Source: Candidatus Omnitrophota bacterium (GTDB taxonomy: Bacteria; Omnitrophota; Gorgyraeia; Zapsychrales; Zapsychraceae). Taken from it: a stretch of DNA of 64,000 nucleotides. Positions 162 through 64,000 of the stretch are shown in pieces. A model generated the notes under the pieces. The model did no database searches. It was not told where the DNA came from and saw nothing but the letters and a program-made list of their open reading frames with translations. A program made the position numbers and the translations under genes. How positions within the stretch are numbered: position 1 is the stretch's first letter; each line of letters starts with the position of its first letter. The stretch is from positions 207,984 to 271,983 of the forward strand of contig JAJDCA010000014.1 of the NCBI GenBank assembly GCA_029261055.1, written 5' to 3'.

Positions 162-370
162 TTGTATGCCATACTTTAAGTACAGAAATGAGGCGATGCC
201 TCGTTTTGTGATGTACATAATTAAAGGTAAACCATTTGTGAGAATGGGACACAAAGTCATGGATCCTAAACCCGGCAAGGTTTAAGACGGCCAGACTGCC
301 GCAACAATGCGTTAAATTAATGATCCCATTTCGTGAATATGAAATGGGATTTTTTTGTGGGGAAAAGACA

Positions 371-1483: not shown

Positions 1484-1508
1484 TTGGTGTGAAACAAGAT
1501 GGCTGCTT

Positions 1509-1940: not shown

Positions 1941-2111
1941 GGGGACATTATGTCAAAGATTTTTAAAAAATCACGTATTATTTAGAAGTTATCTCAAAGC
2001 CTTTTGAGCCTGGTCATGCTAAAAATGTATTGATCAGGATTAAAACTAGATGCTTATTCATTGGGGATTTCTGGAAAATTTCTAGTTAAAACATTTTGAC
2101 GAATAATTTAA

Positions 2112-2139
2112 TTGACAAAAAAATAAAATTTGGCATAAT
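2112..2139 (+). promoter_or_regulatory. sigma70-like promoter upstream of rpsA
   Basis: TTGACA at 2112-2117, 16-nt spacer, cATAAT at 2134-2139. A good SD (AGAGGAAG) precedes the rpsA ATG at 2181. Confidence 0.4.
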
Positions 2140-2180
2140 GGCCGTTCAAAAATTCAAAAAAGAAAAGAGGAAGTAAACTT

Positions 2181-3728: not shown

Positions 3729-3830
3729 GTAAAAGTTTGAAATGGTCAGTGTTCAGTGATTAGTGATCAGAATTATGATTGTAAAGGTAATTTGACCACT
3801 GAAAATTGAGCGCTGACTACTTTTTTTATT

Positions 3831-4994
3831 ATGACCCCCAAAGAAACTATTCAAGAAATTTCCCGCGGAACGACTGAGATTATTAGTCTAGATAATCTTG
3901 AGAAAAAAATTTGTGCCAGTCAAAAAAAAGGAAAGCCTCTGCGTATCAAAGCAGGGTTTGACCCCACAGCCCCAGATGTTCATTTGGGTCATGTTGTTTT
4001 ATTGAAAAAATTAAAGCAATTTCAGGATTTAGGCCATGAGGTCATTTTACTCATAGGAGATTTTACGGCGCGTATTGGTGACCCCACAGGGCAAGATCAG
4101 CTCCGGGTTGTGCTGAGTCCGGAAGTTATTACAAAAAATGCAAAGACATATCAAGATCAGGTTTTTAAAATATTAGATCCAAAAAAGACTAAGGTTGTAT
4201 TTAATAGTGCGTGGTTGGATGCGTTGTCTTCGCATGATCTGTTACATTTAACAAAATATTCAACGGTAGCTCAAATGCTGGCAAGGGCAGATTTTAAAAA
4301 GCGTTTTGAACAGCAAAGAGAGATTAGCCTTCTTGAATTTATTTATCCTCTTCTTCAAGGGTATGATTCTGTGCATTTAAAGGCCGACGTTGAATTGGGT
4401 GGATTAGATCAAAAATTTAATCTTTTGATGGGGCGTCAATTGCAAGAAGTTTTTGATCAGGAGCCGCAAGTTGTCATTATGACCCCGCTTCTTGAAGGGA
4501 CAGATGGCGTCAAGAAGATGAGTAAGTCTTTAGGTAATTACATTGGGATTACAGAATCACCAAAAGAAATTTTTGGAAAGGTGATGTCGATCAATGATAA
4601 TTTAATGATGAAATATTTTGAATATTTAACAGGGTTTAATTTGGATGAAATTAAAGCGTTGCATCCTAAAGAAGCAAAATTGCAATTAGCGCAAGAGTTG
4701 GTAACGCAGTTTTATGATCAACACATGGCATTAAATGCGCGGAAAGATTTTGAAAAAACTTTTTCTCAAGGGCAATCCCCAGAGGAAATGGACGAATATA
4801 CATTGGGTAAAAATGAATGCCCCTTAGGTCAGATTTTATTGGAAAAAGGATATGTAAAATCTATGCGAGAATTTCAACGATTATTTTCGCAGGGTTCTAT
4901 TAGTCATGAAAATAAAAAAATCATCGATGCCCGTTGGGTGCCAGAAAAGGGAGTAGTGAGGATTGGCAAGCGTCGCTTCCTAAGGCTTAAGTGA
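3831..4994 (+). CDS. tyrS: tyrosine--tRNA ligase
   Basis: Class I signature HLGH (DVHLGHVV) and KMSKS (KMSKSLGN). 387 aa. Confidence 0.88.
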
Positions 4995-50254: not shown

Positions 50255-50283
50255 TTGTCATAAAGAGTATCTTATGCTAAGAT
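50255..50283 (+). promoter_or_regulatory. sigma70-like promoter for tRNA-Gly
   Basis: TTGTCA at 50255-50260, 17-nt spacer, TAAGAT at 50278-50283. Confidence 0.45.
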
Positions 50284-50319
50284 TTCCAATCATGCTAAAC
50301 TATAAATCGAACCATATTT

Positions 50320-50390
50320 GCGAGGGTCGTTCAGGGGTAGGACATCAGCTTCCCAAGCTGAGAACACGGGTTCGATTCCCGTTCCTCGCT
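50320..50390 (+). tRNA. tRNA-Gly (anticodon CCC)
   Basis: By hand: GCGAGGG-UC-GUUC-AGGGGUA-GGAC-A-UCAGC-UUCCCAA-GCUGA-GAAC-ACGGG-UUCGAUU-CCCGU-UCCUCGC-U. Near-identical architecture to E. coli tRNA-Gly(CCC). Confidence 0.8.
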
Positions 50391-50396
50391 TTTTTT

Positions 50397-51041
50397 ATGG
50401 TATCTGCGATGTTAATATCCGGTTGCTCAACGTTTGAAGTCGCTCCGGAGTATGTTTATACAGAACTTCCTGAACCAGATAAAAATGGTGTTTATCATAA
50501 AGTTAATGTAGGTGAAACTATTTGGCGTATTGCCAAAACATATGATGTTGCAATTGATGATATTATCAAGGCGAATAATATTCCCAATGTAGCCAAGGTA
50601 GAGAAGGATCAGCTTCTTTTTATTCCGGGAGCCTATTCTCAAAAAAAAATTATTCTTGATACTGGTGACAACAAAAATGAATTTGTATGGCCGGTAAAAG
50701 GAAAAGTTATTCATTATTTTCATCAGCGCTATGGAAATCAGATTAACAAGGGGATTGATATCCAGGCTAAAGATGGGGCTCCCGTACTGGCCGCTCGGAC
50801 AGGTCGTGTAGTATTAGCCGATTATCTGGGAGGGTATGGCCACACCGTCATTTTAGATCATTTAGACGGCTTTTATTCCGTTTATGCGCATAATGCAAAA
50901 CTTTCGGTTAGGTTAGATGAGCTTGTTTTAAAAAATAAAGAAATTGCCTTAGTAGGAAAAAATGAAAATCAGTTAGCTTATTTGCATTTTGAGGTACGTA
51001 AAAATTCAATTGAAGATAATCCGTTGTATTATTTGCCATAA
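50397..51041 (+). CDS. LysM-domain M23 peptidase lipoprotein (NlpD-like)
   Basis: Start reassigned to the ATG at 50397 (MVSAMLISGC lipobox) because the track ORF (50274) runs through the tRNA-Gly. LysM block VNVGETIWRIAKTYDV and M23 blocks (GIDIQAKDGAPVLAA, GHTVILDH). Confidence 0.8.
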   Translation: MVSAMLISGCSTFEVAPEYVYTELPEPDKNGVYHKVNVGETIWRIAKTYDVAIDDIIKANNIPNVAKVEKDQLLFIPGAYSQKKIILDTGDNKNEFVWPVKGKVIHYFHQRYGNQINKGIDIQAKDGAPVLAARTGRVVLADYLGGYGHTVILDHLDGFYSVYAHNAKLSVRLDELVLKNKEIALVGKNENQLAYLHFEVRKNSIEDNPLYYLP

Positions 51042-51054
51042 GGTATTTTAGGAA

Positions 51055-52689
51055 ATGAATCCAATCGATATTAGAAGAGATTTTTTTGGGCGCAAAGAAC
51101 ATTTAGATCTTCTTAAGCGACGTGTGATTGATCTTAAAGAGGGGTATCGACAAAATGTAGCTCTTTTGGGAAATCGTTACGTTGGTAAAAGTATGCTTTT
51201 ACAATATTTTCTTTCCGAGTTAGATGATGATGATAAAATTGTTATTTATCTCGACTTAGAGAATAAAGATTTTCATTACTTTTTTTCTAAGTTTACAACA
51301 AGCCTTCTATACAATTTTTCAAAAAGTAAACATTTACCAATCTATGATGATTTAAATCTTTTTTTAGAAAGTACAAAGAGCATTATTCCGCATACCATCG
51401 AAGTGATTCGAAAAATTCAAGCAGATTATCAAAAAGGGAAATTTGAAGATACTTATTTAGGATTGTTAACTTTGCCTGAGGTGTTTACCCATGAAACAGG
51501 GCAATATTGTTTGCTTATTTTAGATGAATTTCAGAATTTAGATGTTTTTGATTTTCCGAATGTTTTTCAAGATCTTGGTAAGAAAATTATGACACAAAAA
51601 AAGTGTTTTTATATTGTGACAAGTTCTTATCCTGAAACAGCAAAAAAGATTTTATCAGAAAAATTGTCATTGCTTTTTGGGAATTTTGAAGTCATCAACC
51701 TTGAGCCCTTTGATATACAGGAAGGTCAAAAGTGTATTACGAATAATTTAGCTGATAATAAAATTGGACTACAGCTATGCAGTTTTTTAGCAGATTTTAC
51801 CGGAGGACACCCGTTGTATTTAAATTTGATTTGTCAGGAATTAATCAGTCTTTGTGCTATCCATAATCAAAATGAAATTTATAAACCGGTACTTTCCCAG
51901 GCTGTAGAAAATACAATATTTGGTCGATGGGGTGTGATTAGTAGGCATTTTGAATTAATTGTTAATGAATTATGTAGTGGTAAAGGGAATCGATTGATGT
52001 CTTCCGTTTTAATGTCTTTATCTAATGGGAAGCATAAAGTGGATGATTTAGTAAATGATATTGGTGTGAAAAAAGGGCAGATAGCGCAAAAAATTAACCG
52101 GCTTTTAGAATTAGGCATTGTTGTTAAAAATGGTAATTTTCATTATTTGCAGGACAAGCTTTTTAGATATTGGATTAAATTTGTTTATCAGAAAAGAATG
52201 AAAGATTTAGAATTAACCCCGGATAAACAAAGAAAACAATTTAAAGAAGAGTTTCACCTGAGTGTTGAGAATTTTAAAATGTCTTCACGTAAAGATTTCG
52301 CGTCCAGAATTACAGAGCTTTTATATTGTTTTGATAATGAAGCTTTTCATCTCAACGGCAGGAAATATAAATTACCTGTGTTTCGTGAAATTGTTCCTAT
52401 TAAACTCAAAAGTGATAAAGGAATGTATTTTGATATGCTCAAGGCTTCAACGCGAGATGATACGTGGTTTGTTGTGGTCAAAAAAGATCATCTTGGGGAA
52501 AATGATGTGAATGAAATTCTTGCAGCTTCGAAAGAAATTGTAAAGAAACCTGGTCGGTATGTAATTATATCGCTTGCCGCCCTTGACCAAAATACGCGTT
52601 TAAAGGCTTTGCAAGAAAGATTTTGGATTTGGAATGAGGGAGAATTAAACGATTTATTAACCCTTTTTGATAAACCTTATATAGTTTAA
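51055..52689 (+). CDS. large P-loop ATPase of the Arch_ATPase (PF01637-like) type with a C-terminal DUF234-like domain; function unknown
   Basis: DFFGRKEHLDLLKRRV…LLGNRYVGKSMLL (Walker A), LLILDEFQNL (Walker B); 544 aa. Confidence 0.7.
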   Translation: MNPIDIRRDFFGRKEHLDLLKRRVIDLKEGYRQNVALLGNRYVGKSMLLQYFLSELDDDDKIVIYLDLENKDFHYFFSKFTTSLLYNFSKSKHLPIYDDLNLFLESTKSIIPHTIEVIRKIQADYQKGKFEDTYLGLLTLPEVFTHETGQYCLLILDEFQNLDVFDFPNVFQDLGKKIMTQKKCFYIVTSSYPETAKKILSEKLSLLFGNFEVINLEPFDIQEGQKCITNNLADNKIGLQLCSFLADFTGGHPLYLNLICQELISLCAIHNQNEIYKPVLSQAVENTIFGRWGVISRHFELIVNELCSGKGNRLMSSVLMSLSNGKHKVDDLVNDIGVKKGQIAQKINRLLELGIVVKNGNFHYLQDKLFRYWIKFVYQKRMKDLELTPDKQRKQFKEEFHLSVENFKMSSRKDFASRITELLYCFDNEAFHLNGRKYKLPVFREIVPIKLKSDKGMYFDMLKASTRDDTWFVVVKKDHLGENDVNEILAASKEIVKKPGRYVIISLAALDQNTRLKALQERFWIWNEGELNDLLTLFDKPYIV

Positions 52690-52695
52690 AAAAAC

Positions 52696-53175
52696 ATGAA
52701 AATAGGCGTTATTTCAGATACACATTCGCTTGAAATTCCAAAACAAGTGCTTAAAGCTTTTGAAGAGGTGGATTTCATTATTCATGCGGGTGATTTTTGT
52801 GCAGTAGATGATTTGAACATATTGACAGATATTAAAGAAGTGAAAGCTGTTTATGGTAATATGGATGAATCTAAGATTGTTACAAAGTTTCCTCAACGAC
52901 AAATTTTTTCGTTTGGGAAATTTCTGATCGGGTTGTATCATGGGGAAGGCCCTCCAAAACGGGTATTAGATTTTGTTGTTAGAGAATTTGAAGGGGAGAA
53001 AGTGGATGCGGTTATCTTTGGCCATTCGCATTATCCGTTGATTAAAAAAGTAAATAATGTGCTGTATTTTAACCCTGGAAGTCCGAACGATACTATTCGG
53101 GCTCCATACTGTTCTTATGGTATTTTAGAAATCATTAATGATGAGCTTGTCGCAAAAATTATCAAATTAGGGTAA
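52696..53175 (+). CDS. YfcE/MJ0936-family metallophosphoesterase
   Basis: MKIGVISDTHS…HAGDF…GHSHYP. Confidence 0.8.
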   Translation: MKIGVISDTHSLEIPKQVLKAFEEVDFIIHAGDFCAVDDLNILTDIKEVKAVYGNMDESKIVTKFPQRQIFSFGKFLIGLYHGEGPPKRVLDFVVREFEGEKVDAVIFGHSHYPLIKKVNNVLYFNPGSPNDTIRAPYCSYGILEIINDELVAKIIKLG

Positions 53176-53179
53176 AAAA

Positions 53180-53659
53180 ATGGAAAAAATATGGGCTCCG
53201 TGGAGAGATCAATACATTACAAAAATTGTTAAGGAAAATAAACAATGCGTTTTTTGTAAAATTCTTGAAGAAAAAAAAGATAAAAAGAATTATATTTTTA
53301 TGCGTAGAAAATATGCCTATGCGGTTCTCAACATTTTTCCCTATAATAATGGTCATATCCTGATAATACCAAATCGACATGTATCGGATATGAGTAAACT
53401 GAAGAAAGCAGAACGCGATGAACTTTTTGATCTTTTGGAGGAAGCTAAGTCTGTTGTCGGTAAAATTCTTTCTCCGGAAGGATATAACATTGGTATCAAC
53501 CTTGGTCGTGTAGCTGGGGCAGGTTTTCCGCAACATTTACACGTTCATCTTGTCCCGCGTTGGTTTGGGGATGTTAATTTTATGCCTGTAACGGCCAATA
53601 CAAAAGTTATATCGCAATCCTTAAAAAGCCTACATGAAAAGTTAGTGAAACATGCGTAA
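53180..53659 (+). CDS. HIT-family nucleotide hydrolase
   Basis: Histidine triad QHLHVHLVPRW; 159 aa. Confidence 0.8.
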   Translation: MEKIWAPWRDQYITKIVKENKQCVFCKILEEKKDKKNYIFMRRKYAYAVLNIFPYNNGHILIIPNRHVSDMSKLKKAERDELFDLLEEAKSVVGKILSPEGYNIGINLGRVAGAGFPQHLHVHLVPRWFGDVNFMPVTANTKVISQSLKSLHEKLVKHA

Positions 53660-54818
53660 TCGTTTAGACATTGAAGAACTAGAAAAAAAGATATTGGCAC
53701 CTTATGCAATGAAAAGTTGTGAAAGTGCAGGGCGTATTTATGAAGAACCTAAACATGAGGTGCGCACGTGTTATCAGCGTGATAGAGATCGTGTAGTCCA
53801 TTGTGAAGCCTTTAGGAAATTAGAATATAAGACGCAAGTTTTTGTTATTTTTGAAGGGGACTATTACCGGACACGATTGACGCACACCATCGAAGTTGCT
53901 CAAATTGCGCGTACCATTGGACGAAGTCTACAGTTAAACGAAGACCTTATTGAGGCCATTGCCTTGGCGCATGATTTGGGGCATCCACCATTTGGACACG
54001 CTGGAGAACATGCTTTAGATGGTATAATGAAGTCTCTTCATGAGCAGGGTTTTAATCATAATTTGCGTAGTTTTGAAATTGTGACTAAATTTGAAAAGCG
54101 TTATCCTGATTTTGATGGTTTGAATCTGACGGAAGAGGTTTTGATCGGTATTTTAAAACACAAAACAGCCTATGATAAACCAGGAATTTCAGATAAATTT
54201 ACCCATAAAGGCCCTTCATTAGAAGCTCAGGTTGTGGATATCGCTGATTCTTTAGCCTATTTGTCGCATGATATCGATGATGGGTTAACATCTGGATGTA
54301 TTACGGAAGAAGATTTGATCGAAAGTAATTTTTGGCAAAAGGCTTATCAGATTGCCAAAGATCATGTGAGTGTATCCAATAAGGAAATGTTGAAATATCA
54401 GATAGTAAAAGCTTTGATTGATATGCAGATAAGGGACTTATTATCTTTTTCGGGGGATAAAATTACGGCATTAAATTTTCAGAGTTCTGAGGAAGTAAGA
54501 AGTCATGCTGAAACAGTTATTGATTTTAGTCCTGGGATGAACCAAGATAGAAATACTTTGCAAGGTTTATTAAATAAAAAAGTTTATCATCATTACCGTG
54601 TGGAGAGAATGACATCTAAAGCCGCGCGAATTATTAATGATTTATTTGAAGTTTATAAAAAAAATCCAAGTCAATTGCCGTATGCCGTTTATCAGCGGGA
54701 TCAAAAATATGCGGATAAAGATGTGTATGAAATTATTTGTAATTATATTGCGTCCATGACGGACAGGTTTGCCCTCAATGAGCACAAAAAACTCTTCGAC
54801 CCCTACAAAAAAGTATAA
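53652..54818 (+). CDS. dgt: dGTP triphosphohydrolase-like HD-domain protein
   Basis: …QRDRDRVVHCEAFRKLEYKTQVF…RLTHTIEVAQIARTIG…AHDLGHPPFGHAGE; 388 aa. Confidence 0.85.
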   Translation: MRNRLDIEELEKKILAPYAMKSCESAGRIYEEPKHEVRTCYQRDRDRVVHCEAFRKLEYKTQVFVIFEGDYYRTRLTHTIEVAQIARTIGRSLQLNEDLIEAIALAHDLGHPPFGHAGEHALDGIMKSLHEQGFNHNLRSFEIVTKFEKRYPDFDGLNLTEEVLIGILKHKTAYDKPGISDKFTHKGPSLEAQVVDIADSLAYLSHDIDDGLTSGCITEEDLIESNFWQKAYQIAKDHVSVSNKEMLKYQIVKALIDMQIRDLLSFSGDKITALNFQSSEEVRSHAETVIDFSPGMNQDRNTLQGLLNKKVYHHYRVERMTSKAARIINDLFEVYKKNPSQLPYAVYQRDQKYADKDVYEIICNYIASMTDRFALNEHKKLFDPYKKV

Positions 54819-55851
54819 ATTGATTTTATCAGCTGTTCATATGGTTTATAGATTGGTTAATTCTACCTATAATGAACAGGAATTAGTTCTTCGTTTAACG
54901 CGACTACTTTGTCAATTTATTAAAGCTAGTTCGTCCACAATTTATTTATTAAATCCTAAAACAAAAAAAATTGAGCTGATTGGTATTTTTGACAATAAAA
55001 TTAATATTCTTGTGACGAAAAAAAGAGAACTTGCCAAAATTTCAAAAGAAGAATATAGGGTGACACAAGGATATGCTATTTTTGAAAAACATCTTCTAGG
55101 GATACCTCTTGTGGCGGATGACAATGTCGGTGCGGTTTTTATCAAACGTAAAATTCATGAGCCAGCGTTTACTGAATTTGACAAAGAAATTCTTTCTGTT
55201 GTTGCAGAACAATCTGTAACGGCTATTAAGAATTTGCAGTTGTACGAGGAACAACAAAAGGTCATATTGGCGAGTATTAAATTTATTGGAACGTTATTAG
55301 ATCAGCATGGTCCTGCCTGGGGCGTATCGCATACGCCAGTTTTTTTTAAAATTATAAAATGTTTAGGGGACGCTCTTAAAATTGGTGAAGATGAGGTCAA
55401 TAATTTGTATTATGCTAGTGTGTTGCGTGATGCGGGAGCTATTGATGTTCCTTACGAAATTTTATCCAAAACAAGTCAGTTGACACCTGAGGAATTTAAA
55501 GTCATCCGTAATCAACCGGCAAAAAGCGTAGAACTCATTCGTCCGGTTAGGTTTTTGAAACCGGTGTTACCTATTATTTTGTATCACCATGAAAAATATG
55601 ATGGTTCGGGATACCCCTCAGGATTGAAGAAGGAACAAATACCTATAGGGGCCAGAATTATGGCTGTTGTTGATGCTTTTGAAGCTATGACGATAGATAG
55701 GCCCTATAAAAAACGTTTGTCTGTTGAAGAAGCCCTTGAAGAGTTAAAGCACAACAGAGGGACGCAGTTTGATCCTAATGTGGTCAATACCTTTATAAAA
55801 TTATCGCGTCAAAAAAAGTTTAGAAAATACTTGTCTTCTCATCATATATAA
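54769..55851 (+). CDS. GAF-domain HD-GYP phosphodiesterase (c-di-GMP signalling)
   Basis: C-terminal HHEKYDGSGYP (HD-GYP) and an N-terminal GAF-like region. Start uncertain (ATG 54769/54778/54841). The 54769 start overlaps dgt by 50 nt. Confidence 0.75.
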   Translation: MPSMSTKNSSTPTKKYKLILSAVHMVYRLVNSTYNEQELVLRLTRLLCQFIKASSSTIYLLNPKTKKIELIGIFDNKINILVTKKRELAKISKEEYRVTQGYAIFEKHLLGIPLVADDNVGAVFIKRKIHEPAFTEFDKEILSVVAEQSVTAIKNLQLYEEQQKVILASIKFIGTLLDQHGPAWGVSHTPVFFKIIKCLGDALKIGEDEVNNLYYASVLRDAGAIDVPYEILSKTSQLTPEEFKVIRNQPAKSVELIRPVRFLKPVLPIILYHHEKYDGSGYPSGLKKEQIPIGARIMAVVDAFEAMTIDRPYKKRLSVEEALEELKHNRGTQFDPNVVNTFIKLSRQKKFRKYLSSHHI

Positions 55852-55887
55852 AATTATAATAGATATTATATAAATCAATAAATAAAA

Positions 55888-56475
55888 ATGACTAATAAAA
55901 TAAATAATCAATCTCAATTTGAGCTTTTTCCTGCAAATACACCACCTATCCAAAAAGATAAGAATAAAGGGGGTCCATTAAAAGACTTGACATTCTCAGC
56001 CGAAAATATTATTGTTTTATGCATTGTTTTCGTCATGGTTTTGGTGTTTTGCTTTTCTTTTGGGGTTGACCGCGGGAAAAAGGTAGTTAAACCGCCCTCC
56101 AAAGATGTTATTTCACGCGATTTCCATCAAAATGAGGATGTTGAGATTGTAATTGAAGAGAAAGTAGCAGTTCCATTAAAGGCTCAATTAGCTCCAATAA
56201 AAGAGCCGATCAATGTGGAAAACGAAGTAACATCTGCTGTAGAACTTTCCGTAATAGAAGATTTATTTACTGTCCAAGTCGCCTCCTTTAAAAATGAGGA
56301 AAATGCTCAACGTGAAGCGCAGCGTTTACAGGATTTTGGAGAAGATATATTTGTGCTAACGAAAGGCAGCCATTCGATTGTCTGTATAGGAAAATTTAAT
56401 CTAAAAGAGAATGCCAAAGAGCTTTCTCACAAACTTAAATCAAAATACAATGATTGTTTAGTCAGGAGATTATAA
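55888..56475 (+). CDS. SPOR-domain membrane protein
   Basis: One TM segment and a C-terminal SPOR-like block (FTVQVASFKNEENAQREAQRLQDFGEDIFVL…IGKFNLKENAKEL). Confidence 0.65.
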   Translation: MTNKINNQSQFELFPANTPPIQKDKNKGGPLKDLTFSAENIIVLCIVFVMVLVFCFSFGVDRGKKVVKPPSKDVISRDFHQNEDVEIVIEEKVAVPLKAQLAPIKEPINVENEVTSAVELSVIEDLFTVQVASFKNEENAQREAQRLQDFGEDIFVLTKGSHSIVCIGKFNLKENAKELSHKLKSKYNDCLVRRL

Positions 56476-56477
56476 TT

Positions 56478-56702
56478 ATGTCATTACATCCTTCATTACG
56501 TGTCGATACAGCCGGAGCCCAACAACGCACGGTTTTAACGCGCATTGAACGCATCAAGGACCTTATGAAAAAAGGGCTCTGGGAAGATGGTCGTTCTGTT
56601 ACAGGTTTACCTAAAACAAAGATTATCAAAATTAAGGCTCAAAAGAAAACTAAAGAAGAAGATGAAGATACAGATGCTGCGGCAAAAGAGGTTAAAAAAT
56701 AA
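56478..56702 (+). CDS. small basic hypothetical protein (74 aa)
   Basis: MSLHPSLRVDTAGAQQRTVLTRIERIKDLMKKGLWEDGRS… with an acidic/Lys-rich tail. SD GGAG upstream. Confidence 0.5.
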   Translation: MSLHPSLRVDTAGAQQRTVLTRIERIKDLMKKGLWEDGRSVTGLPKTKIIKIKAQKKTKEEDEDTDAAAKEVKK

Positions 56703-56720
56703 AATTAATTTATAATTTTT

Positions 56721-56787
56721 AAGCGTGAAGTGTGAAGCATGAAATGTAGCGTTTAATACGTTTTATGAGCAATGCTTCACGCTTCAT
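56721..56787 (+). terminator. long imperfect hairpin downstream of the small ORF (terminator-like or regulatory RNA structure)
   Basis: AAGCGTGAAG-TGTGAAGCAT … 31-nt loop … ATGCTTCACGCTTCAT. The 5' arm carries an internal GTGAAG duplication. A weak T-tract (AATTTT) follows. Confidence 0.4.
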
Positions 56788-56818
56788 AATTTTCCCCATC
56801 TCATAAGTTTTACTATCC

Positions 56819-57739
56819 ATGAAAAAAATAATTTCTAATTTCTTCCTAATTACATTCTTCACAATAGGGCTTTCAAGTAGAGGGTGGGCGCAAGATGTAT
56901 TTCCATTCTTAGCAAAAGTTACATCGAAACATGTAAATGTTCGATCAGGGCAAAGTGTGAATTTTGAGTCCTTATATCAGTTTAATAAGGATGATAAGGT
57001 CATTGTTGTTGGAAAAGAATATAGTTGGTACAAAATTGAGCTACCCCCTTTGGCCAAAAGTTTTGTCCATAAAGATTTTGTGCAGAAGATCAATGCGACA
57101 ATTGCTCAGGTTATTGCTGCTCGTGTCAATGTGCGGGCGGGTAAAGGTATTGAACATATGATTCTTGGGCAATTGAACAAAGGCTCGCGAGTACGTATTT
57201 TAGAAGAGACCGAAGAATGGTACAAAATTGAACCTGTCGCCAATACGTATGGATGGATATCCGATAAATTTTTAGAATATGAATCTAAGAGTGTTGCTAT
57301 ACAAAATAAAAAACAAGACATCAGATTATTTGTTGAAGAAAAACAAGAAGAAAAACACGAAGTAAAGCAAAAAGTAAATAAGGATGTAAATCGGAAAGTA
57401 AAGAAGGAAGTAAAGCGGAAAGTAAAGCAGAAAGTAAAACCGCCAAAGGCAGAAAAACAGAAAAAGATCGCCCGCACCACGAAGCCTACCAATCAACCTA
57501 AGTTAGAAAAAGGGCAAGTGGCTGTTGAAGGATATTTAAAGCCCATTCAAAATGCCAAATCGATTGAAGTGCAATATCAGTTTATTATAAATGAACAACA
57601 TGTGTATGATATCCAAGGCCTTAAGCCGGTTTTTGATGAGTTTTTATACCGCAAAGTCGCTATTGAAGGGGTCATTAACACAAAAATATCTTCATTGTAT
57701 CCCGTCATTTTAGTATCCAGAGTGCAATTAATGTTATAG
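56819..57739 (+). CDS. secreted protein with two bacterial SH3 domains and a KVKxKV tandem-repeat linker
   Basis: Signal peptide, two SH3b-like blocks (…SWYKIELPP…, …EEWYKIEPV…WISDKFL) and the repeat KHEVKQKVNKDVNRKVKKEVKRKVKQKVKP. Confidence 0.65.
   Translation: MKKIISNFFLITFFTIGLSSRGWAQDVFPFLAKVTSKHVNVRSGQSVNFESLYQFNKDDKVIVVGKEYSWYKIELPPLAKSFVHKDFVQKINATIAQVIAARVNVRAGKGIEHMILGQLNKGSRVRILEETEEWYKIEPVANTYGWISDKFLEYESKSVAIQNKKQDIRLFVEEKQEEKHEVKQKVNKDVNRKVKKEVKRKVKQKVKPPKAEKQKKIARTTKPTNQPKLEKGQVAVEGYLKPIQNAKSIEVQYQFIINEQHVYDIQGLKPVFDEFLYRKVAIEGVINTKISSLYPVILVSRVQLML
57352..57440 (+). repeat. in-frame tandem 12/24-nt repeats (GAAAGTAAAG units) encoding (K/R)KVK(K/Q)(E/K)V
   Basis: Direct repeats are visible in the sequence at 57352-57440. 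Confidence 0.7.
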
Positions 57740-57742
57740 GAG

Positions 57743-58373
57743 ATGTATCATTTTTGTTCTTCTCATTTTATTTATCACCATCGTCCTTCACGAGTATGCC
57801 CATGCATGGACCGCGTATAAATTAGGAGACCCTACGGCAAAAAACGCAGGGCGACTTACTTTAAATCCCCTCAAGCATGTGGATCCTGTTGGTACCATTT
57901 TTATTCCTGGAATGCTTTATCTATTAAGTCGTTTTGGTATGCCATTGATTTTGTTTGGCTGGGCTAAGCCTGTTCCGGTTAATTTTCAACGGTTATCCAA
58001 TCCTAAGCGAGATATGATTCTTGTCGGCATGGCCGGGCCGGCTATTAATATTTTTATTGCGGTTGTATTAAGTGTGTTTATCAAATTTAATCCAAAACTA
58101 GCTTTCAATGAATGGATGCTGGCAGTCATGTTTATTAATTTGCTGCTAGCGATTTTTAATATGATGCCTATACCGCCTTTGGATGGATCCCGGTTAGTTA
58201 TGGGTTTATTGCCAAATCGTTTGGCATTGCCATATAGTCGGATAGAGCCTTTTGGTATTCCACTTGTGCTGATAGCCGTTATTTATTTTGATATATTTGA
58301 GAAAGTTATTTTACCCATTATTGAAGTATGCGGAAATATGTTGGGTGTAAAATTTATAGGAGTAATTATCTGA
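57743..58373 (+). CDS. M50/site-2-protease family zinc metalloprotease, apparent frameshift at the start (possible pseudogene or assembly indel)
   Basis: The HEYAHAW (HExxH) motif and preceding TM helix are in frame with the 57879 ORF but lie upstream of any ATG/GTG/TTG. An ATG at 57743 with an adjacent AGGAG is in the +2 frame. Removing one T from the T5 run (57751-57755) gives MYHFVLLILFITIVLHEYAHAW…. Confidence 0.5.
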
Positions 58374-59473
58374 TGTCTATCGTTAATGTCGCATTAAAAC
58401 AAAATGCTTATAAAATTGTTGTCGGGCAAAATATTTTAGAAAATTTAGGGAAGCAGGTGAGTAGCCTAAAGATAGGTCTGGATGCTGTGATTATCACGAA
58501 TCCTATTATTAAAAAACATTATGGGAAATTGGTTGCTGCGAGTTTGACTCAAAAGGGTTTTACAGTAAAGTTTTTTGAGGTTCCCGAAGGAGAGAAGAGC
58601 AAGTCGGCAAAGATGGCCTTTCAGCTTATTGAAAAGGTTGCGCAGTATGATCGTTTAAAGAGAGTGTTTATTGTGGCTATGGGGGGCGGTGTTGTTGGGG
58701 ATTTGGCTGGATATGTTGCCGCGGCTTATAAAAGAGGGATACCGTACTTTCAGTTACCAACCACATTTTTGGCCCAAATTGATTCGGCTATCGGTGGAAA
58801 AGTCGGCATTGATTTGCCGATGGGAAAGAATTTAGTAGGAGCCTTTTATCAGCCTAAAGTCGTCTTTAGTGATGTGGCCTCATTGGCAACATTGTCCAAA
58901 CGGCAAATCCGTAACGGTTTGGCTGAAGCAATCAAATATGGCATTATTTATGATAAGAAATTATTTGATTTTATTGCGCGTCACTATGAAAGCCTTTTAA
59001 ATCACGATTTGAAGGCTTTAGAAAAAGTCGTTTTAAGTTGTAGTAAAATAAAAGCCGAAGTGGTTGTGGCTGATGAAAAAGAGACTAAAGGAATTCGTAC
59101 GATACTCAATTTTGGGCATACAGTTGGCCACGCAATTGAAGCAGCCGGCACTTACAATGATTACCAGCATGGTGAAGCGATTGCCTTGGGTATGCGTGTG
59201 GCTGCGGATATTTCGTATCAGTTAAAATTATTATCTTCAGAAAACGTTTTAAAAATTAATCAACTTTTATCCGCTGTAGGGCTTCCGGAAAAAATTCAAA
59301 AAATCCGTTTGGCTGATATTATGCACAAAATGCAACACGATAAGAAATTTCAATCCGGAAAGAATCGTTTTGTTCTTGCTGAAGCGATTGGTAAGGTTAG
59401 CGTTGTCGAAGGGATTGATCTAAAAATAATTAAGCAGGCCATTAAGGCGTATATGTATTCTTCCCGCGTTTGA
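58373..59473 (+). CDS. aroB: 3-dehydroquinate synthase
   Basis: ATG overlaps the upstream TGA (TGATG). Conserved DHQS blocks (GGGVVGDLAGYVAA, NFGHTVGHAIE). Confidence 0.88.
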   Translation: MSIVNVALKQNAYKIVVGQNILENLGKQVSSLKIGLDAVIITNPIIKKHYGKLVAASLTQKGFTVKFFEVPEGEKSKSAKMAFQLIEKVAQYDRLKRVFIVAMGGGVVGDLAGYVAAAYKRGIPYFQLPTTFLAQIDSAIGGKVGIDLPMGKNLVGAFYQPKVVFSDVASLATLSKRQIRNGLAEAIKYGIIYDKKLFDFIARHYESLLNHDLKALEKVVLSCSKIKAEVVVADEKETKGIRTILNFGHTVGHAIEAAGTYNDYQHGEAIALGMRVAADISYQLKLLSSENVLKINQLLSAVGLPEKIQKIRLADIMHKMQHDKKFQSGKNRFVLAEAIGKVSVVEGIDLKIIKQAIKAYMYSSRV

Positions 59474-60053
59474 TATTGAGGGTGATCGTTTTACCGCTAT
59501 CTGTCCGTAGCTGAACTTCTTTTAATGTAACAGCCATTACTTCAATTACTTCGATACCTTCCACAAATTCTCCCACCGCATAGATTTCATCATTAATTAG
59601 GGCTACATATGTTTCATCGGCTAACATTATGCCACCAAGAATAAGGGTTCTATTATTTGGGATGGCGATTTTTTTAGGTGTTATTTCTTTTGTCACAATA
59701 GGGGCAGATTTTTGTGTTAGTTCGTTCGAGGAAAGGGGCTCTGGCTTTTCAGAAAGGGTAGTCTGGGATGATGTGAAAGTTTGAGTTAATTTTTCCAATT
59801 CAGGGCGATCAAATTTCTTTATTAGAAGAGTAATGGCAAGTCCTGAAATAAAACAGAAGATGGCGATGGCAATAATTATGAATATTGATTGTGTATTGTG
59901 TTTTTTTAGCGGAGTTGGTTTTGAGCTTGGAGTATTTTCTTTTGTATCAGAGGTGTTTTGATTTTTTAATTTGGGGGCCGTTGGAGAGGTTACCGTTTGG
60001 GTTTCTTGTAAATTATTTTGTGTTTTCTTAAGGGCGTCGTGAATAATACTCAT
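59442..60053 (-). CDS. GspB/ExeB-like membrane protein
   Basis: N-terminus MSIIHDALKK resembles the GspB family start. One TM segment. Its start overlaps the stop of the upstream gspA-like gene. Confidence 0.5.
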   Translation of the reverse strand: MSIIHDALKKTQNNLQETQTVTSPTAPKLKNQNTSDTKENTPSSKPTPLKKHNTQSIFIIIAIAIFCFISGLAITLLIKKFDRPELEKLTQTFTSSQTTLSEKPEPLSSNELTQKSAPIVTKEITPKKIAIPNNRTLILGGIMLADETYVALINDEIYAVGEFVEGIEVIEVMAVTLKEVQLRTDSGKTITLNIKRGKNTYTP

Positions 60054-60886
60054 TATGCAACGACCTCCTCAGCACATTTATGAATAATGTGTTCATCAAT
60101 ACGACCGGTTTCTTCTATAAACCCGGCTAGCAGAGCTCTGTCACATAAAATATTTATCATTCGAGGTGTTCCTAATGAGTAGTTATAAATGGCATCAACG
60201 GCTTCGGAAGTGAAGCGTAGGCCGCATAAGAAATTTTGTGGAGAATTTGCGACTTTTAATCTGTGTTGGATGTATTCTTGGAGTTCAGTGCGGTCCAATG
60301 GTTTGATGTTGAAGCATACGGTAATTCTTTGTTTGAGTTGGCGTAATTCTGGCAGCAGAAGTTTATCGGTTAGTTCCGGCTGGCCAACTAAAATAATTTG
60401 AAGAAGTTTTTCTTTTGTTGTTTCAAGGTTAGAGAGGAGGCGGATTTGCTCTAGCTGCTTGACTTTTAAATTCTGAGATTCATCAATAATGAGGACCACA
60501 TTGTTCCCCTGGTTTGATTCTTCAAGGAGGTATGTGTTTAAGGCATCTATGAGAGCAAATTTATTTCTTGCTTTGGATGTTATCCCAAGGTCCTTGAGAA
60601 TAAATTGAAGTAATTGTATATCGGAAAAACTTGGGTTTAATATAAATGCAGACTTTGTTTTTTTGTCTAATCGGTTTAGAAGCGCTCGGCAGAGGGTTGT
60701 CTTACCTGTGCCGACTTCTCCGGTGATAAGCATAATGCCTTTACGGTGGCTGATCCCGTATAAAAGATTAGAAAATGCTTCGGCATGATTTACGCTGGGG
60801 TAAAAAAAATCGGGATCGGCCGTAATATTAAAAGGGCTTTCGGTAAGTTTATAAAAGTCATTGTACATATGTAAAGAGTATATCAT
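60053..60886 (-). CDS. GspA/ExeA/MshM-like AAA ATPase
   Basis: …FYKLTESPF…MLITGEVGTGKTTLCRALL…; 277 aa. Confidence 0.75.
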   Translation of the reverse strand: MIYSLHMYNDFYKLTESPFNITADPDFFYPSVNHAEAFSNLLYGISHRKGIMLITGEVGTGKTTLCRALLNRLDKKTKSAFILNPSFSDIQLLQFILKDLGITSKARNKFALIDALNTYLLEESNQGNNVVLIIDESQNLKVKQLEQIRLLSNLETTKEKLLQIILVGQPELTDKLLLPELRQLKQRITVCFNIKPLDRTELQEYIQHRLKVANSPQNFLCGLRFTSEAVDAIYNYSLGTPRMINILCDRALLAGFIEETGRIDEHIIHKCAEEVVA

Positions 60887-61013
60887 TTTGTGTTTGTTTG
60901 TAAATGATGGAAACGATTCTTAAAATTTTTTAATTATTTGTAAGCATATAGTTTTTTTATGATAAGCTACTTTTATTGATGAAGTTAGACCATTTTTAGA
61001 ATTTGCTTACGTT

Positions 61014-63344
61014 ATGATTAAATATTATTTACATAAGAAAATTCCTTTTTTTGCTGTTGTCATAATCCTTATGTGTTTTGGGCTTATCGGTTGCGAAAAA
61101 AGATCAAAAGAATCTATCCCCTCTGCGCAACAATCTCAATCCAAACCTATCCAAATAGCGACGCCGGCTGTTGAAATTCCTGTGGTGAAAAATCTGAATG
61201 TTATGGTACAGACGTATATAGAAGAAAGTCCTCTGTGTAGTGATCATGATTTATTGGATCTTGATCAGTGTTCATCTTGTGGGCAATCGTCTGGTACAGA
61301 ATGTGTTTTATCTAAGCAGTTGGCTGGAGGAGTACCGTGTTATAGCTGTGTTGAAAAAGACGAGGAATGTGCTGATAGCGGAAAAATGGATTGGCGGGAT
61401 TGCTCTTTGTGTACAGAAATTCCAGGGGCTCGATGTGTTCCCACACAAAAAGTTATGCGAGGACGGACTTGTTATAAATGTGTTCAAAGAAAACAAGAAT
61501 GTTTTCGGCTTAAATTATTAACTGAATCGGAATGTGATCCGTGTAGTAATCACCAGGCTTTGGAATGTATTCCAGCCCAGAAGACGATAGATGGCGAACA
61601 ATGTTATCAATGTATTGATAAACCTGGCAGTTGTGAAGACGTTGGGTATCTAACGAGGCAAGATTGTCGGTTATGCGAAAAAGATGAATCTAAAGAATGT
61701 GAGAAAGCCTTTAAAACTAAAAAAGGTAAGAGGTGTTATCAGTGCGTCGATAAGCCACAAAAGTGCAAGGATTTGGGGCAGATGAATTTAAGGCCATGTA
61801 ATCGCTGCGCGCAAAATCCTGATAAAGAATGTTTGCCCGGTCAGAAAACTAAAACAGGGCTGCAATGTTATCAATGCTTAGATTTTCCTCAAACATGTGA
61901 AGCGCTTGGGCTGTTGGGTTTTGAAGGTTGCAGCAATTGTTCCAAAACGCCGGATAAACAGTGTCAAAAAGCCGCACAAACCAAAGAAGGTTTGCAATGC
62001 TTTACTTGTGTCGACGCACCTCAAACATGTGCACAGTTGGATCTTTTAGATGCAAAGAGTTGTGTAAATTGTGATAAGGATCCAAAGAAAGAATGTATAA
62101 AGGATCAAAAGACAAAAGAAGGAAAGCAGTGCTTTAGATGCCAAGACAAGCCACAGGAATGTGGTGATTTGGGATTAATCGATGAAGCAGCTTGCGGTGA
62201 TTGCACGTCGGATCCGAAGAAAGAATGTATGGCGGGTGAAATAACGAAAGAAGGTAAACAGTGTTATGCGTGTCAGGATAAACCACAGGAATGTGGTGAG
62301 TTGGGATTAATCAATGAAGCAGCTTGCGGTGATTGCACGTCGGATCCTAAAAAAGAATGTGTAGCTGGTGAAACAACAAAAGAAAGTAAGCAGTGTTATG
62401 TTTGCCAGGACAAACCTCAGGAATGTGGTGAGTTGGGATTAATCGATGAAGCAGCTTGCGATGATTGCACGTCGGATCCGAAGAAAGAATGTGTGGCTGG
62501 GGAAAAGACAAGAGAAGGAAAGCTGTGTTATGCATGTCAGGACAAACCTCAGGAATGTGGTGAGTTGGGATTAATAGATGAGGCAGCTTGTGGAGAATGC
62601 ACGTCGGATCCTAAAAAAGAATGTGTAGCTGGTGAAACAACAAAAGAAAGTAAGCAGTGTTATGTTTGCCAGGACAAACCTCAGGAATGTGGTGATTTGG
62701 GATTAATCGATGAAGCAGCTTGCGGTGATTGCAGGGCGGATCCGAAGAAGGAATGTGTGGCGGGTGAAAAAACAAAAGAAGGTAAACAATGTTATGTCTG
62801 TGCTGCGCGAAAACAAAAATGTGTTGATTTAAATTTAATCAACGAAGGGACGTGTTCATCTTGCGAAGCTGATGGTAAGCGGGAATGCATTGCGGATAGA
62901 GAAACAGAAGAAGGCGATCAGTGTTACCAATGTGTTGATAAACCGGAAGAATGTCAAGATTTAGATCTTATCAATAAAAGTGATTGTTCGTCATGTGAAC
63001 AAGATGCACAAGCTTATTGCAAACAAGCTTCCAAAACCAAAGAAGGTAAACAGTGTTATTTCTGTCAACCCAAAACACAGGCATGCACGTCGTTGGGATT
63101 GTTAAATTCTCTCGACTGTGAATCAAAATGTACAAATTGTGTGGAAGCTCAAAAAGCTGACAATGGCGAACAATGTTTTCGATGCGACATGCCGCAAGGG
63201 CATGCCAAATGTTTAGAAGAAGATTATTACCGTGATTGTTCCGCGTGCCAAGAAAATGAAATCTGCGAAGCCATGACACTTATTCAATTTTATGCTGCCC
63301 AGCGTAAAGAAATGCTGACCTGCTACACCTGCTCACCGAGATGA
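61014..63344 (+). CDS. cysteine-rich tandem-repeat lipoprotein (about 17 x 44-aa six-Cys repeats)
   Basis: Lipobox MCFGLIGC. Repeat consensus ECGELGLIDEAACGDCTSDPKKECVAGEKTKEGKQCYVCQDKPQ, about 100 Cys in total. Confidence 0.8.
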   Translation: MIKYYLHKKIPFFAVVIILMCFGLIGCEKRSKESIPSAQQSQSKPIQIATPAVEIPVVKNLNVMVQTYIEESPLCSDHDLLDLDQCSSCGQSSGTECVLSKQLAGGVPCYSCVEKDEECADSGKMDWRDCSLCTEIPGARCVPTQKVMRGRTCYKCVQRKQECFRLKLLTESECDPCSNHQALECIPAQKTIDGEQCYQCIDKPGSCEDVGYLTRQDCRLCEKDESKECEKAFKTKKGKRCYQCVDKPQKCKDLGQMNLRPCNRCAQNPDKECLPGQKTKTGLQCYQCLDFPQTCEALGLLGFEGCSNCSKTPDKQCQKAAQTKEGLQCFTCVDAPQTCAQLDLLDAKSCVNCDKDPKKECIKDQKTKEGKQCFRCQDKPQECGDLGLIDEAACGDCTSDPKKECMAGEITKEGKQCYACQDKPQECGELGLINEAACGDCTSDPKKECVAGETTKESKQCYVCQDKPQECGELGLIDEAACDDCTSDPKKECVAGEKTREGKLCYACQDKPQECGELGLIDEAACGECTSDPKKECVAGETTKESKQCYVCQDKPQECGDLGLIDEAACGDCRADPKKECVAGEKTKEGKQCYVCAARKQKCVDLNLINEGTCSSCEADGKRECIADRETEEGDQCYQCVDKPEECQDLDLINKSDCSSCEQDAQAYCKQASKTKEGKQCYFCQPKTQACTSLGLLNSLDCESKCTNCVEAQKADNGEQCFRCDMPQGHAKCLEEDYYRDCSACQENEICEAMTLIQFYAAQRKEMLTCYTCSPR
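62157..62816 (+). repeat. five near-identical 132-bp tandem DNA repeats inside the Cys-rich lipoprotein gene
   Basis: Units begin at 62157, 62289, 62421, 62553 and 62685. Units 2 and 4 share an exactly identical stretch of about 95 nt. Confidence 0.85.
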
Positions 63345-63518
63345 AAACAACCATTCTGATGAAATGTATATGACAGAGAAAGACGGGGTAGAATTCTTGG
63401 CCATGCAAATATATTATACGCGTACTTGAAAATTACTGGATTGGAATAATTTTTACGGCATCAGCAAGAAAACTTTTTTACCACGATGGACTGTAGGCTG
63501 GAATTTGACAAAATAAAA

Positions 63519-63550
63519 AAAGCATGTTATTTTAACGAATGCTTTTTTTC
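63519..63550 (+). terminator. Rho-independent (bidirectional-looking) terminator
   Basis: AAAGCAT-gttattttaacga-ATGCTTT followed by TTTTTC, with an A-run upstream. Confidence 0.5.
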
Positions 63551-63680
63551 TTTTCTTTTCATTATCCTAAGCATTCATTCCCACATTTTTTCTCTAACTC
63601 TCATTGCTCCAACAACATTCATTTCTTTTTAAAAATCAACGGAATAATAAATTTTTTCTAGCAAAAAAGGAACCCGCTCT

Positions 63681-64000
63681 ATGCAAATAACAAAAAATTC
63701 ACTCTGGCGAAATTTATGTATTAAACCATTGTTAGGCATTTTTATTTTTATGCTGACGTTAGGTAACCCGCAAATGGTACCGGAACTCTGGGCCCAAAGT
63801 GCATCGACAGTCATTGATGTGCGTATTTCTGAATCTCTCGGAGATGCCGAAGAGAAATCGACAGATGGCCGAATGTATTTAACCAGCTCTGTCCTTGAAC
63901 TAACAAAATATTATTCCTATGGTGATCTAACCGTTGGGTTGCGTTATCCAGGATTAAACATTCCGCAAGGGGCGCAAATCACCGATGCGTATGTTCAGTT
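63681..64000 (+). CDS. secreted hypothetical protein, 3' truncated by the window edge
   Basis: ATG at 63681; MQITKNSLWRNLCIKPLLGIFIFMLTLGNPQMVPELWAQS signal peptide; open to the end of the window. Confidence 0.5.
   Translation, partial: MQITKNSLWRNLCIKPLLGIFIFMLTLGNPQMVPELWAQSASTVIDVRISESLGDAEEKSTDGRMYLTSSVLELTKYYSYGDLTVGLRYPGLNIPQGAQITDAYVQ

Follow-up and report, generated by a model that had tools for sequence, protein, structure and literature searches.

The 64-kb window of DNA from Candidatus Omnitrophota that was analysed here contains a complete gene for a 776-aa lipoprotein made almost entirely of tandem copies of one small six-cysteine module. This module, which repeats with a 44-aa period and combines a helix with a β-hairpin, is previously uncurated and has no Pfam, NCBIfam or PDB counterpart, and its family has been seen so far only in Candidatus Omnitrophota, on seven genome loci. 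We hold the structural description of the protein and of its module with high confidence. As to function, the reading that we favour, at a probability of about 0.5, is that the module may be a new extracytoplasmic, disulfide-rich stalk domain in a fibrillar-adhesin-like lipoprotein, for which we infer disulfide chemistry, a rod shape, a surface location and an adhesive role. Omnitrophota are widespread nanobacteria without cultured members, and attachment to other microbes and predation on them have been inferred for the group.

Results

The open reading frame, uninterrupted over 2.3 kb, occupies positions 61014..63344 of the forward strand including the stop codon, exactly the position and the 776-aa length given in an earlier note made from the sequence alone. 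Its product consists of a lipobox signal, a 46-aa linker, 14 exact 44-aa units and a conserved two-module C-terminal cap. The signal peptide (61014..61094, +) is of the Sec/SPII type, without a twin-arginine motif, and has the charged n-region (lysines K3, K8 and K9), h-region and lipobox ([LVI][ASTVI][GAS]C within the first ~40 residues) of bacterial lipoproteins. It ends in FGLIGC, where a regular expression for the PROSITE-style lipobox rule finds L-I-G-C, with Cys27 as the predicted lipidated residue; this cysteine aligns, invariant, with the lipobox cysteine of homologues. The linker that follows (residues 28-73; 61095..61232, +) is of Pro/Gln/Ser/charged composition and ends in the motif Y-[LI]-x3-P-x-C, which is conserved directly before the first module and whose Tyr68 is invariant in eight homologues.

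The 14 canonical modules (residues 74-689; 61233..63080, +) each carry the spacing C-x10-C-x2-C-x7-C-x11-C-x2-C, and across them the 44-aa period is exact, without a single indel, and all six cysteine columns are invariant. Within each period the core domain spans ~38 residues, and consecutive modules are joined by 6-residue, Pro-containing linkers. Units 8-12 (62157..62816, +) form a homogenised array core with 77-95% nucleotide identity and TRF periods of 132 and 264 nt, while units outside it share 39-65% identity at the nucleotide level and 25-57% at the protein level, and all units are mutually different. The unit consensus quoted earlier is that of units 8-12. Among units 8-12 dS ranges from 0.18 to 1.2, synonymous differences predominate, and dN/dS averages 0.18, so that purifying selection acts on the units at the protein level.

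The C-terminal cap (residues 690-776; 63081..63341, +) is made of two degenerate six-cysteine modules; all complete members of the family keep it, even where a long array is missing. Its first module is shortened (C-x10-C-x3-C-x2-C-x11-C-x2-C); its second, which we call type B, has the spacing C-x8-C-x2-C-x5-C-x18-C-x2-C and a hydrophobic hairpin that reads LIQFY here and mostly LILFY in relatives, and the protein terminates three residues past the last cysteine. The chain is acidic (pI 4.8), and the protein contains 98 cysteines in 776 aa (12.6%), 96 of them in the 16 modules and two in the signal peptide. These counts, 16 modules (14 canonical and two terminal) and 98 cysteines, replace the earlier approximations of 17 and 100; the description of a lipobox protein composed nearly entirely of six-cysteine 44-aa units is borne out by the LIGC at Cys27, the 14 units of exact spacing and the two degenerate ones. 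With an HMM score of 820 bits over 16 domains, the array lies far beyond chance.

The repeat gene is flanked on its 5' side by a 127-nt, AT-rich divergent intergenic spacer (60887..61013). Promoter-like hexamers occur on both of its strands as consensus-level matches at a frequency no higher than in shuffles. On the 3' side, ~170 nt past the stop codon, a terminator-like hairpin followed by a T run (63510..63554, +; dG -10.2 kcal/mol, z -3.0), which a simple terminator scan overlooked, agrees with the claim that the gene has its own terminator. Across the spacer lies the gene of a 277-aa AAA_22 ATPase (60053..60886, -; AAA_22 match 3e-28), whose best NCBIfam match is the XrtA/PEP-CTERM-system-associated ATPase TIGR03015, at 288 bits below the curated cut-off of 324.5. 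Its stop codon abuts the start of a gene for a 203-aa single-pass membrane protein (59442..60053, -), in which HMM searches detected no family and no GspB match. The head-to-head arrangement reported for a gspA/gspB-like pair holds for the ATPase gene. Envelope-related genes (M23/LysM peptidase, SPOR, SH3_3 and M50 protease) lie nearby in the window, and an HMM search found no second copy of the array gene within its 64 kb.

The two neighbours do not travel with the family. Neither the ATPase nor the 203-aa protein was found by tblastn at 10 related loci (L001-L010), and two further loci (L011 and L012) have no GspA-like ATPase among their called genes. The suggested link with a gspA/gspB-like pair is thus conserved at none of these loci, and we reject functional coupling to GspA/GspB (ExeA/ExeB), or a role as their secretion cargo, because the association is not conserved. 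The relatives' own neighbours, among them a GGDEF protein, a DUF3313 lipoprotein and a PP-loop ATPase in three loci and an NHL β-propeller in four, differ by subgroup, and the neighbourhood gives no consistent functional hint.

That the module could not be placed in a known family at first reading is borne out. The whole protein matches no Pfam or NCBIfam family at E <= 1, and single units, unit pairs, the cap and the N-terminal region, searched at E <= 10, return nothing better than E = 0.28. Pfam-A and NCBIfam should cover the EGF, Kazal, TNFR_c6, LDL-A and Myxococcus Cys-rich repeats. Homologues likewise carry no Pfam domain on their arrays, no PDB sequence family matches the module significantly (the weak profile match to the MDM2 RING has E = 0.03), and no description of the family was found in the literature on Cys-rich, disulfide or lipoprotein topics in Omnitrophota/Omnitrophica or on Velamenicoccus cysteine. 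AlphaFold models the module with confidence (pLDDT 88-90) as a short turn helix, a helix with Cys13 and Cys16, and a β-hairpin with Cys24 and Cys36/Cys39, with no significant fold match in the PDB. This prediction does not sustain the zinc-ribbon or knottin-like fold suggested earlier.

Relatives were scarce. A word-indexed homology search with the whole protein returned nothing, which we regard as a prefilter false negative, since 30 relatives emerged with a 44-column profile; these were the only ones among 1.84 billion representatives, and family clusters number 12 in 5.8 billion. The 776-aa product, together with three alternative ATG starts, was absent by exact look-up from a 15-billion-protein collection that holds its neighbours. 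We attribute both this absence and the near invisibility of the family in protein databases to the arrays, which fragment short-read assemblies and gene calls. A scan with a three-sequence cap alignment located the relatives' genome loci: the seven genome loci all belong to Candidatus Omnitrophota, three more are metagenome loci, and a phage origin is rejected, the family being on no viral contig.

Module numbers across members are 16, 26, 26, 27, 36, 48 and 45. The end units are divergent and the central units homogenised, reaching 100% identity in a complete 3.36-Mb chromosome (OY759724.1). Three minimal relatives (P0013, P0015 and P0022) retain the signal, one or two units and the cap, but an acidic low-complexity spacer takes the place of the array; since both ends are kept when the array is exchanged in this way, the array appears to act as a spacer or length-variable stalk. 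A lipobox is present in 10 of the 14 known N-termini of the short (non-S8) family, with E, D, G or S after the lipid cysteine. Lipid anchoring is not universal, since three relatives have ordinary signal peptides and in another (L004) the lipobox position reads FIRC, which is non-canonical.

The profile search also found giant Cys-rich S8 subtilases (P0004, P0006, P0012, P0014, P0019, P0026 and P0030), without taxonomic assignment, in which the six-cysteine modules sit N-terminal to Peptidase_S8 in secreted proteins of 1300-2400 aa. They share with the repeat lipoprotein its canonical module (type A), the type B module of its cap and the long N-terminal array behind a signal peptide. They differ from it in having a C-terminal Peptidase_S8 and further regions, in lacking a lipobox, and in alternating types A and B where the array of the lipoprotein is pure type A.

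The cysteine pattern of the family bears on the chemistry of the module. Every family member has six cysteines per module plus those of the signal peptide, and 307 of 315 family units keep all six; the only losses are of Cys13 and Cys24 together. This paired loss occurred in two independent modules that keep the other four cysteines, and the orthologues of both keep all six. It speaks for three disulfides in each module and against a Zn(CxxC)2 site. Judging from these natural variants, Cys13 and Cys24 probably form one disulfide, and the hairpin register of the predicted model would pair Cys16 with Cys36 and Cys2 with Cys39; independent support exists for one of the three proposed bonds, Cys13-Cys24. 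On the earlier question of zinc sites or disulfides, disulfide-locked beads are thus favoured and zinc held by two CxxC pairs is disfavoured.

Several known architectures can be set against the module. It resembles CS-αβ mini-proteins such as insect defensins and scorpion toxins in size (~38 residues), in its six cysteines and in a predicted helix that disulfides from two helix cysteines one turn apart would pin to a two-stranded antiparallel hairpin. A knottin/CS-αβ assignment is nevertheless rejected: it requires 1-4, 2-5, 3-6 connectivity, and the paired loss points to a 2-4 bond (Cys13-Cys24). With the MDM2 RING it shares the spacing C-x2-C-x7-C-x11-C-x2-C over 27 residues and a few residues besides, in a match that is Cys-driven; structure comparison recognised no zinc-ribbon, treble clef or RING fold, and the prediction puts the first CxxC in a helix but the second in a strand. 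Moreover, in a Zn(Cys)4 site all four CxxC ligands are indispensable; the motif is present, yet two variants lack Cys13 (and Cys24), and these modules are retained without one "ligand" in proteins that are extracytoplasmic and Sec-exported. We therefore reject a zinc ribbon or RING. A multihaem c-type cytochrome is rejected for want of any CxxCH (4 His in 776 aa, none after a CxxC), and an Fe-S or rubredoxin wire because of the Sec signal and the absence of a family match.

Discussion

We propose that the protein would be exported by Sec and anchored by lipid, with a flexible tether of ~46 aa after the lipobox cysteine. Each module may fold independently into the predicted N-terminal turn, α-helix (Cys13, Cys16) and β-hairpin (Cys24; Cys36, Cys39), stapled by three intradomain disulfides, and the resulting bead chain would be an acidic, protease- and force-resistant, semi-rigid stalk. 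Unequal recombination could tune its length, giving the 16 to 48 modules seen between species, and the stalk would keep the membrane anchor and the conserved C-terminal cap tens of nanometres apart. The role that seems most likely is that of an extracytoplasmic structure with which the cell reaches, or attaches to, other cells or surfaces, because Omnitrophota are predicted to be predatory or epibiotic and because the same module occurs in the giant secreted S8 subtilases. Omnitrophota have been described as inferred predators with adhesion- and S8-bearing giant proteins (bioRxiv 10.1101/2023.11.21.568195).

Fibrillar adhesins combine tandem stalk domains, a distal adhesive domain and an anchor (PMC8286594). 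The repeat lipoprotein resembles them in its anchor at one end, its long tandem array of one small domain with short linkers (16 modules, 6-residue separations), its highly similar central repeats, a copy number that varies among relatives, and a distinct conserved element distal to the anchor. It differs in that the stalk module lies outside known stalk families and is predicted to be disulfide-rich, with six cysteines in 38 residues, and in being anchored through an N-terminal lipobox and not a sortase motif, an autotransporter, or a T1SS or T9SS signal. No recognised distal adhesive domain was found, neither the protein nor its cap having a Pfam domain at E <= 10; the distal cap is itself two variant modules. 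The evidence favours the earlier picture of adhesin-like, disulfide-locked beads on a string.

That the array is a chimeric or collapsed repeat assembly, and not a real gene of such length, is highly improbable. Short-read assemblies do break at arrays of this family: most relatives in the databases are fragments from contig ends, two (P0036 and P0037) resemble chimeras with unrelated proteins, the repeat gene is split into several called ORFs in L011 and L012, and, with units 8-12 up to 95% similar, the copy number here could be under-counted. Here, however, the ORF has both conserved ends in place on a source contig of 321 kb, its units all differ from one another, and synonymous differences prevail. 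We consider the array real because 26-48 modules occur in relatives, one of which lies in a complete chromosome; full-length relatives occur in seven genomes, and the chimera envisaged as a possible refutation is not what was found. An unlikely alternative, on the chemical side, is a chain of metal beads, in which Cys13-x2-Cys16 and Cys36-x2-Cys39 of each module would hold Zn, or Fe as in rubredoxin, with Cys2/Cys24 as a disulfide or as extra ligands, and the protein would be an extracytoplasmic metal store, buffer or redox relay of 16-48 sites. The two CxxC pairs per unit, ~19 residues apart, the identical spacing in the MDM2 RING profile and the 96 thiols of the mature protein speak for it. 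Against the disulfide-stalk reading that we favour, many Omnitrophota are regarded as anaerobes, and neither the window nor the relatives' loci showed an oxidative-folding gene. We find it quite doubtful that the module is a new extracytoplasmic metal-thiolate domain, binding Zn or Fe in each bead through two CxxC pairs, and not a disulfide knot; if it were, lipoproteins and giant subtilases of Omnitrophota would bear 16-48 metal centres in a chain, which could serve as a metal reservoir, as a redox-sensitive switch or to relay electrons at the cell surface.

The location of the protein allows a further alternative, which we consider rather unlikely, namely a lipoprotein that stays inside the envelope as a tether, ruler or scaffold and has no role in cell contact. 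Diderm lipoproteins face the periplasm by default, the window contains the envelope-related genes named above, and an acidic, rigid repeat would be compatible with a spacer. A three-fold range in module number (16-48) between species would, however, imply very different envelope dimensions, and the same module is found in giant secreted subtilases and in relatives without a lipid anchor. It is very unlikely that the protein is instead a multi-headed protease inhibitor or shield, analogous to multi-Kazal proteins and protecting the cell's own envelope from the giant S8 subtilases that carry such modules or from prey proteases, even though single polypeptides combine the module with Peptidase_S8 domains and multi-domain serine-protease inhibitors typically have small six-cysteine domains in long tandem arrays.

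If the arrays are disulfide-stapled stalks, as we favour, they would be candidate attachment or reach structures of Omnitrophota and a new class of stalk domain for adhesin-prediction pipelines, and they would imply a heavy use of extracytoplasmic disulfides in a largely anaerobic lineage.

Results

A tandem array of six-cysteine modules

The gene at 61014..63344 (+ strand), listed as a single open reading frame, codes for a 776-aa protein with 98 cysteines (12.6% of its residues). Between aa 74 and 689 it is made of 14 canonical units with the pattern C-x10-C-x2-C-x7-C-x11-C-x2-C and an exact 44-aa period, the cysteine spacing 11-3-8-12-3-7 being repeated 14 times with no indels. Two further six-Cys modules of altered spacing (aa 690-776), here called the cap, end the protein; the resulting 16 modules hold 96 cysteines and the signal peptide adds two. 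The N-terminus fits a PROSITE-style lipobox rule (LIGC, Cys27), and the mature form has an acidic (pI 4.8, net charge about -34), hydrophilic (GRAVY -0.75) composition. Open reading frame, cysteine count and lipobox rule thus bear out the spacing, period and lipoprotein nature described in the earlier note, while its figure of about 17 modules has to be corrected to 16.

Across the 14 aligned canonical units, the six cysteines are the only invariant columns; in a wider alignment of 28 units, conservation also reaches at least 90% at Thr30 and Gly33, both in the hairpin turn. Units 8-12 share 77-95% DNA identity, and Tandem Repeats Finder (TRF) periods in the array were 132 and 264 nt. Outside units 8-12 identity falls to 39-65% in DNA and 25-57% in protein, with length and cysteines kept exactly. 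Since mean dN/dS is 0.18 and dS 0.18-1.2 among units 8-12, the repeats are translated and constrained, and are not very recent copies.

The whole protein had no match in Pfam-A or NCBIfam at E <= 1, and separate searches of both at E <= 10, with one unit, a unit pair, the cap or the N-terminal region as query, gave nothing better than E = 0.28, so that the module, as previously claimed, could not be placed in a known family. PDB sequences had no match for the protein, and with a unit profile the sole result was a weak match to the MDM2 RING (E = 0.03), which has the spacing C-x2-C-x7-C-x11-C-x2-C in common with the unit. The six-Cys module family is real and previously uncurated.

Relatives and their distribution

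A word-indexed homology search with the whole protein found no relatives; an exhaustive search of 1.84 billion representatives with a 44-column profile found 30 related proteins, which fall into two groups. Members of one are proteins like that of the window, or contig-end fragments of such proteins; all share its cap (alignments A2 and A4), and several also have its lipobox and N-terminal junction motif. The other comprises giant secreted proteins of 1300-2400 aa (P0004, P0006, P0012, P0014, P0019, P0026 and P0030; P0012 is coded at 18-4013 of locus L013), in which a signal peptide is followed by alternating arrays of canonical (type A) and related (type B) six-Cys modules, not covered by any Pfam model, and by a C-terminal Peptidase_S8 domain. 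Scanning one genome per GTDB species yielded seven loci, each of them in a MAG of Candidatus Omnitrophota; three more were found in JGI metagenomes and none in the viral contigs scanned.

Module counts of the full-length proteins from those genomes are 26, 26, 27, 36, 48 and 45, again with a period of exactly 44 aa, and the cysteine number of every member equals six per module plus those of the signal peptide. End units are divergent and middle units homogenised; the array at L007, a locus on a complete chromosome of 3.36 Mb, has many units that are 100% identical. Full-length relatives with variable module numbers, one of them in a complete chromosome, show that the array is real, heritable and variable in length. 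The relatives also make it most likely that the window comes from an Omnitrophota bacterium. The family, so far confined to Omnitrophota (seven genome loci), makes length-variable arrays on lipoproteins and on subtilases.

These arrays clearly disturb assembly and gene calling, and are systematically mis-assembled or mis-called. Contig-end fragments make up most of the database members; P0036, with an Hsp20 domain (PF00011) ahead of the units, and P0037, with about one unit joined to unrelated sequence, have the look of chimeras made in metagenome assembly; and the array gene is split into 2-5 called genes at L011 (7279-12544) and L012 (2075-4529). A 15-billion-protein collection includes the contig's neighbouring proteins (NCBI) but neither the 776-aa product nor three versions of it with alternative starts, and the gene seems to be uncalled, or differently called, in the public record. 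In the window, by contrast, the reading frame is intact with both conserved ends in place, each unit differs from all others, and the source contig is long (321,631 bp); some central units of the array may nonetheless have been collapsed.

Gene neighbourhood

The divergent neighbour (60053-60886, - strand) is an AAA_22 ATPase whose nearest model, the XrtA/PEP-CTERM-system-associated ATPase, falls short of its cut-off (288 against 324.5 bits); next to it lies a 203-aa membrane protein that matched no family in Pfam-A or NCBIfam. Downstream of the array gene, a terminator-like hairpin (63510-63554) precedes an open reading frame whose N-terminus resembles a signal peptide; this frame had no Pfam match and runs off the window end (63681-64000, + strand). 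Promoter-like sites were no more frequent than in shuffles. All three neighbours lacked tblastn matches in ten related loci (L001-L010), and none of the relatives' neighbour genes is present in the window. Upstream of the array gene, L001, L003 and L004 carry genes for a GGDEF protein, a DUF3313 lipoprotein and a PP-loop ATPase; the downstream side holds DUF4126 in L001 and stops at the contig edge in the other two. In L012 the gene is preceded by an ABC transporter and followed by PDH genes. Given these differing contexts and the lack of matches, the proposed link with a gspA/gspB-like pair is not supported.

Among the more divergent loci, L005 (3789-5879), L006 (1722-3884), L007 (2625-4751) and L011 (5162-7282) carry, immediately upstream and on the same strand, a gene for a secreted NHL-repeat double beta-propeller of about 700 aa, which was not found in the window or in the L001/L003/L004 group. 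The overlap of its stop with the array gene start in L007 points to an operon partner. Just downstream of the array gene, L007 (11244-12032, - strand) and L011 (13636-14397, - strand) have a VWA/DUF1194 protein with a PEP-CTERM sorting signal; together with the resemblance of the window's ATPase to the PEP-CTERM-system-associated model, this is possibly a loose exosortase link, or a coincidence.

Elsewhere in the window, a run of cell-envelope genes (50274-58373, + strand) codes for an M23 peptidase with LysM, a SPOR-domain protein, an SH3_3-domain protein and an M50 protease fragment, and is followed by 3-dehydroquinate synthase (58328-59473). Up to 59473, every reading frame of 150 aa or more lies on the + strand; the GC skew stays positive throughout, and GC content is about 33-40%. 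By gene sizes alone, positions 1-58000 look like an rpoB/rpoC, fusA, tuf and ribosomal-protein region.

Predicted structure and cysteine pairing

AlphaFold2 modelled aa 558-776, with homologues and internal unit triplets aligned, at a mean pLDDT of 87.8 and a pTM of 0.45, and one unit, with 28 aligned units, at a pLDDT of 89.9. The high pLDDT and low pTM fit predicted beads that are well defined and of uncertain mutual orientation. Every unit is predicted to have a short turn helix (residues 2-5), a beta-bridge (residue 8), a helix with Cys13 and Cys16 (10-17), and two strands, one with Cys24 (22-29) and one with Cys36 and Cys39 (35-41). In the DSSP register of the modelled hairpin (29 opposite 35, etc.), Cys24 and Cys36 share one sheet face within reach of the helix, and Cys39 lies on the opposite face within reach of the N-terminal segment bearing Cys2. 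From this register we infer a predicted connectivity of Cys2-Cys39, Cys13-Cys24 and Cys16-Cys36.

All six cysteines are kept in 307 of the 315 full units from all relatives; five have CxxxC in place of CxxC, and in three both Cys13 and Cys24 are missing. P0014 has a second four-Cys variant without these two cysteines, while its module orthologues in P0019, P0024 and P0026 retain six. Cys13 and Cys24 have thus been lost as a pair twice independently, with Cys2, Cys16, Cys36 and Cys39 kept. Judged from these sequences, such losses are what a Cys13-Cys24 disulfide would predict, and are contrary to what a Zn(Cys13, Cys16, Cys36, Cys39) site would predict.

Discussion

The structural description of the array protein is, in our judgement, very probably correct, and the most likely mechanism would be a stalk of modules stapled by disulfides. 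The main exotic alternative, a metal-binding bead chain, appears improbable: the weak RING match and the CxxC pairs notwithstanding, Sec/SPII export with no twin-arginine signal, the near absence of His and the absence of CxxCH count against metal or haem centres, and the module has no HMM or fold match to rubredoxin, ferredoxin or zinc fingers.

What the array may do is indicated by three minimal members, P0013, P0015 and P0022, which have a signal or lipobox, a linker, one or two units and the two-module cap; an acidic low-complexity spacer of about 75-120 aa, with short repeats of its own in P0013, stands where the long array would be. The middle of the protein is therefore interchangeable and its ends are not. 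Together with the three-fold range of module numbers, the homogenised central units and the N-terminal use of the arrays in subtilases, this indicates that the array is a stalk or spacer fixing the distance from the membrane anchor to the C-terminal cap. The array protein shares the anchor-stalk-tip logic of fibrillar adhesins (PMC8286594) but, unlike them, has no recognised adhesive domain, and we put the probability of a stalk or adhesin-like role for the predicted protein at about 0.5.

The array protein would belong with the tandem-domain envelope or surface stalk proteins, its module being new to curation. Omnitrophota are inferred to be predators or epibionts and possess giant proteins with adhesion and S8 domains (bioRxiv 10.1101/2023.11.21.568195), a habit and a protein repertoire that make a function in contact or reach plausible.
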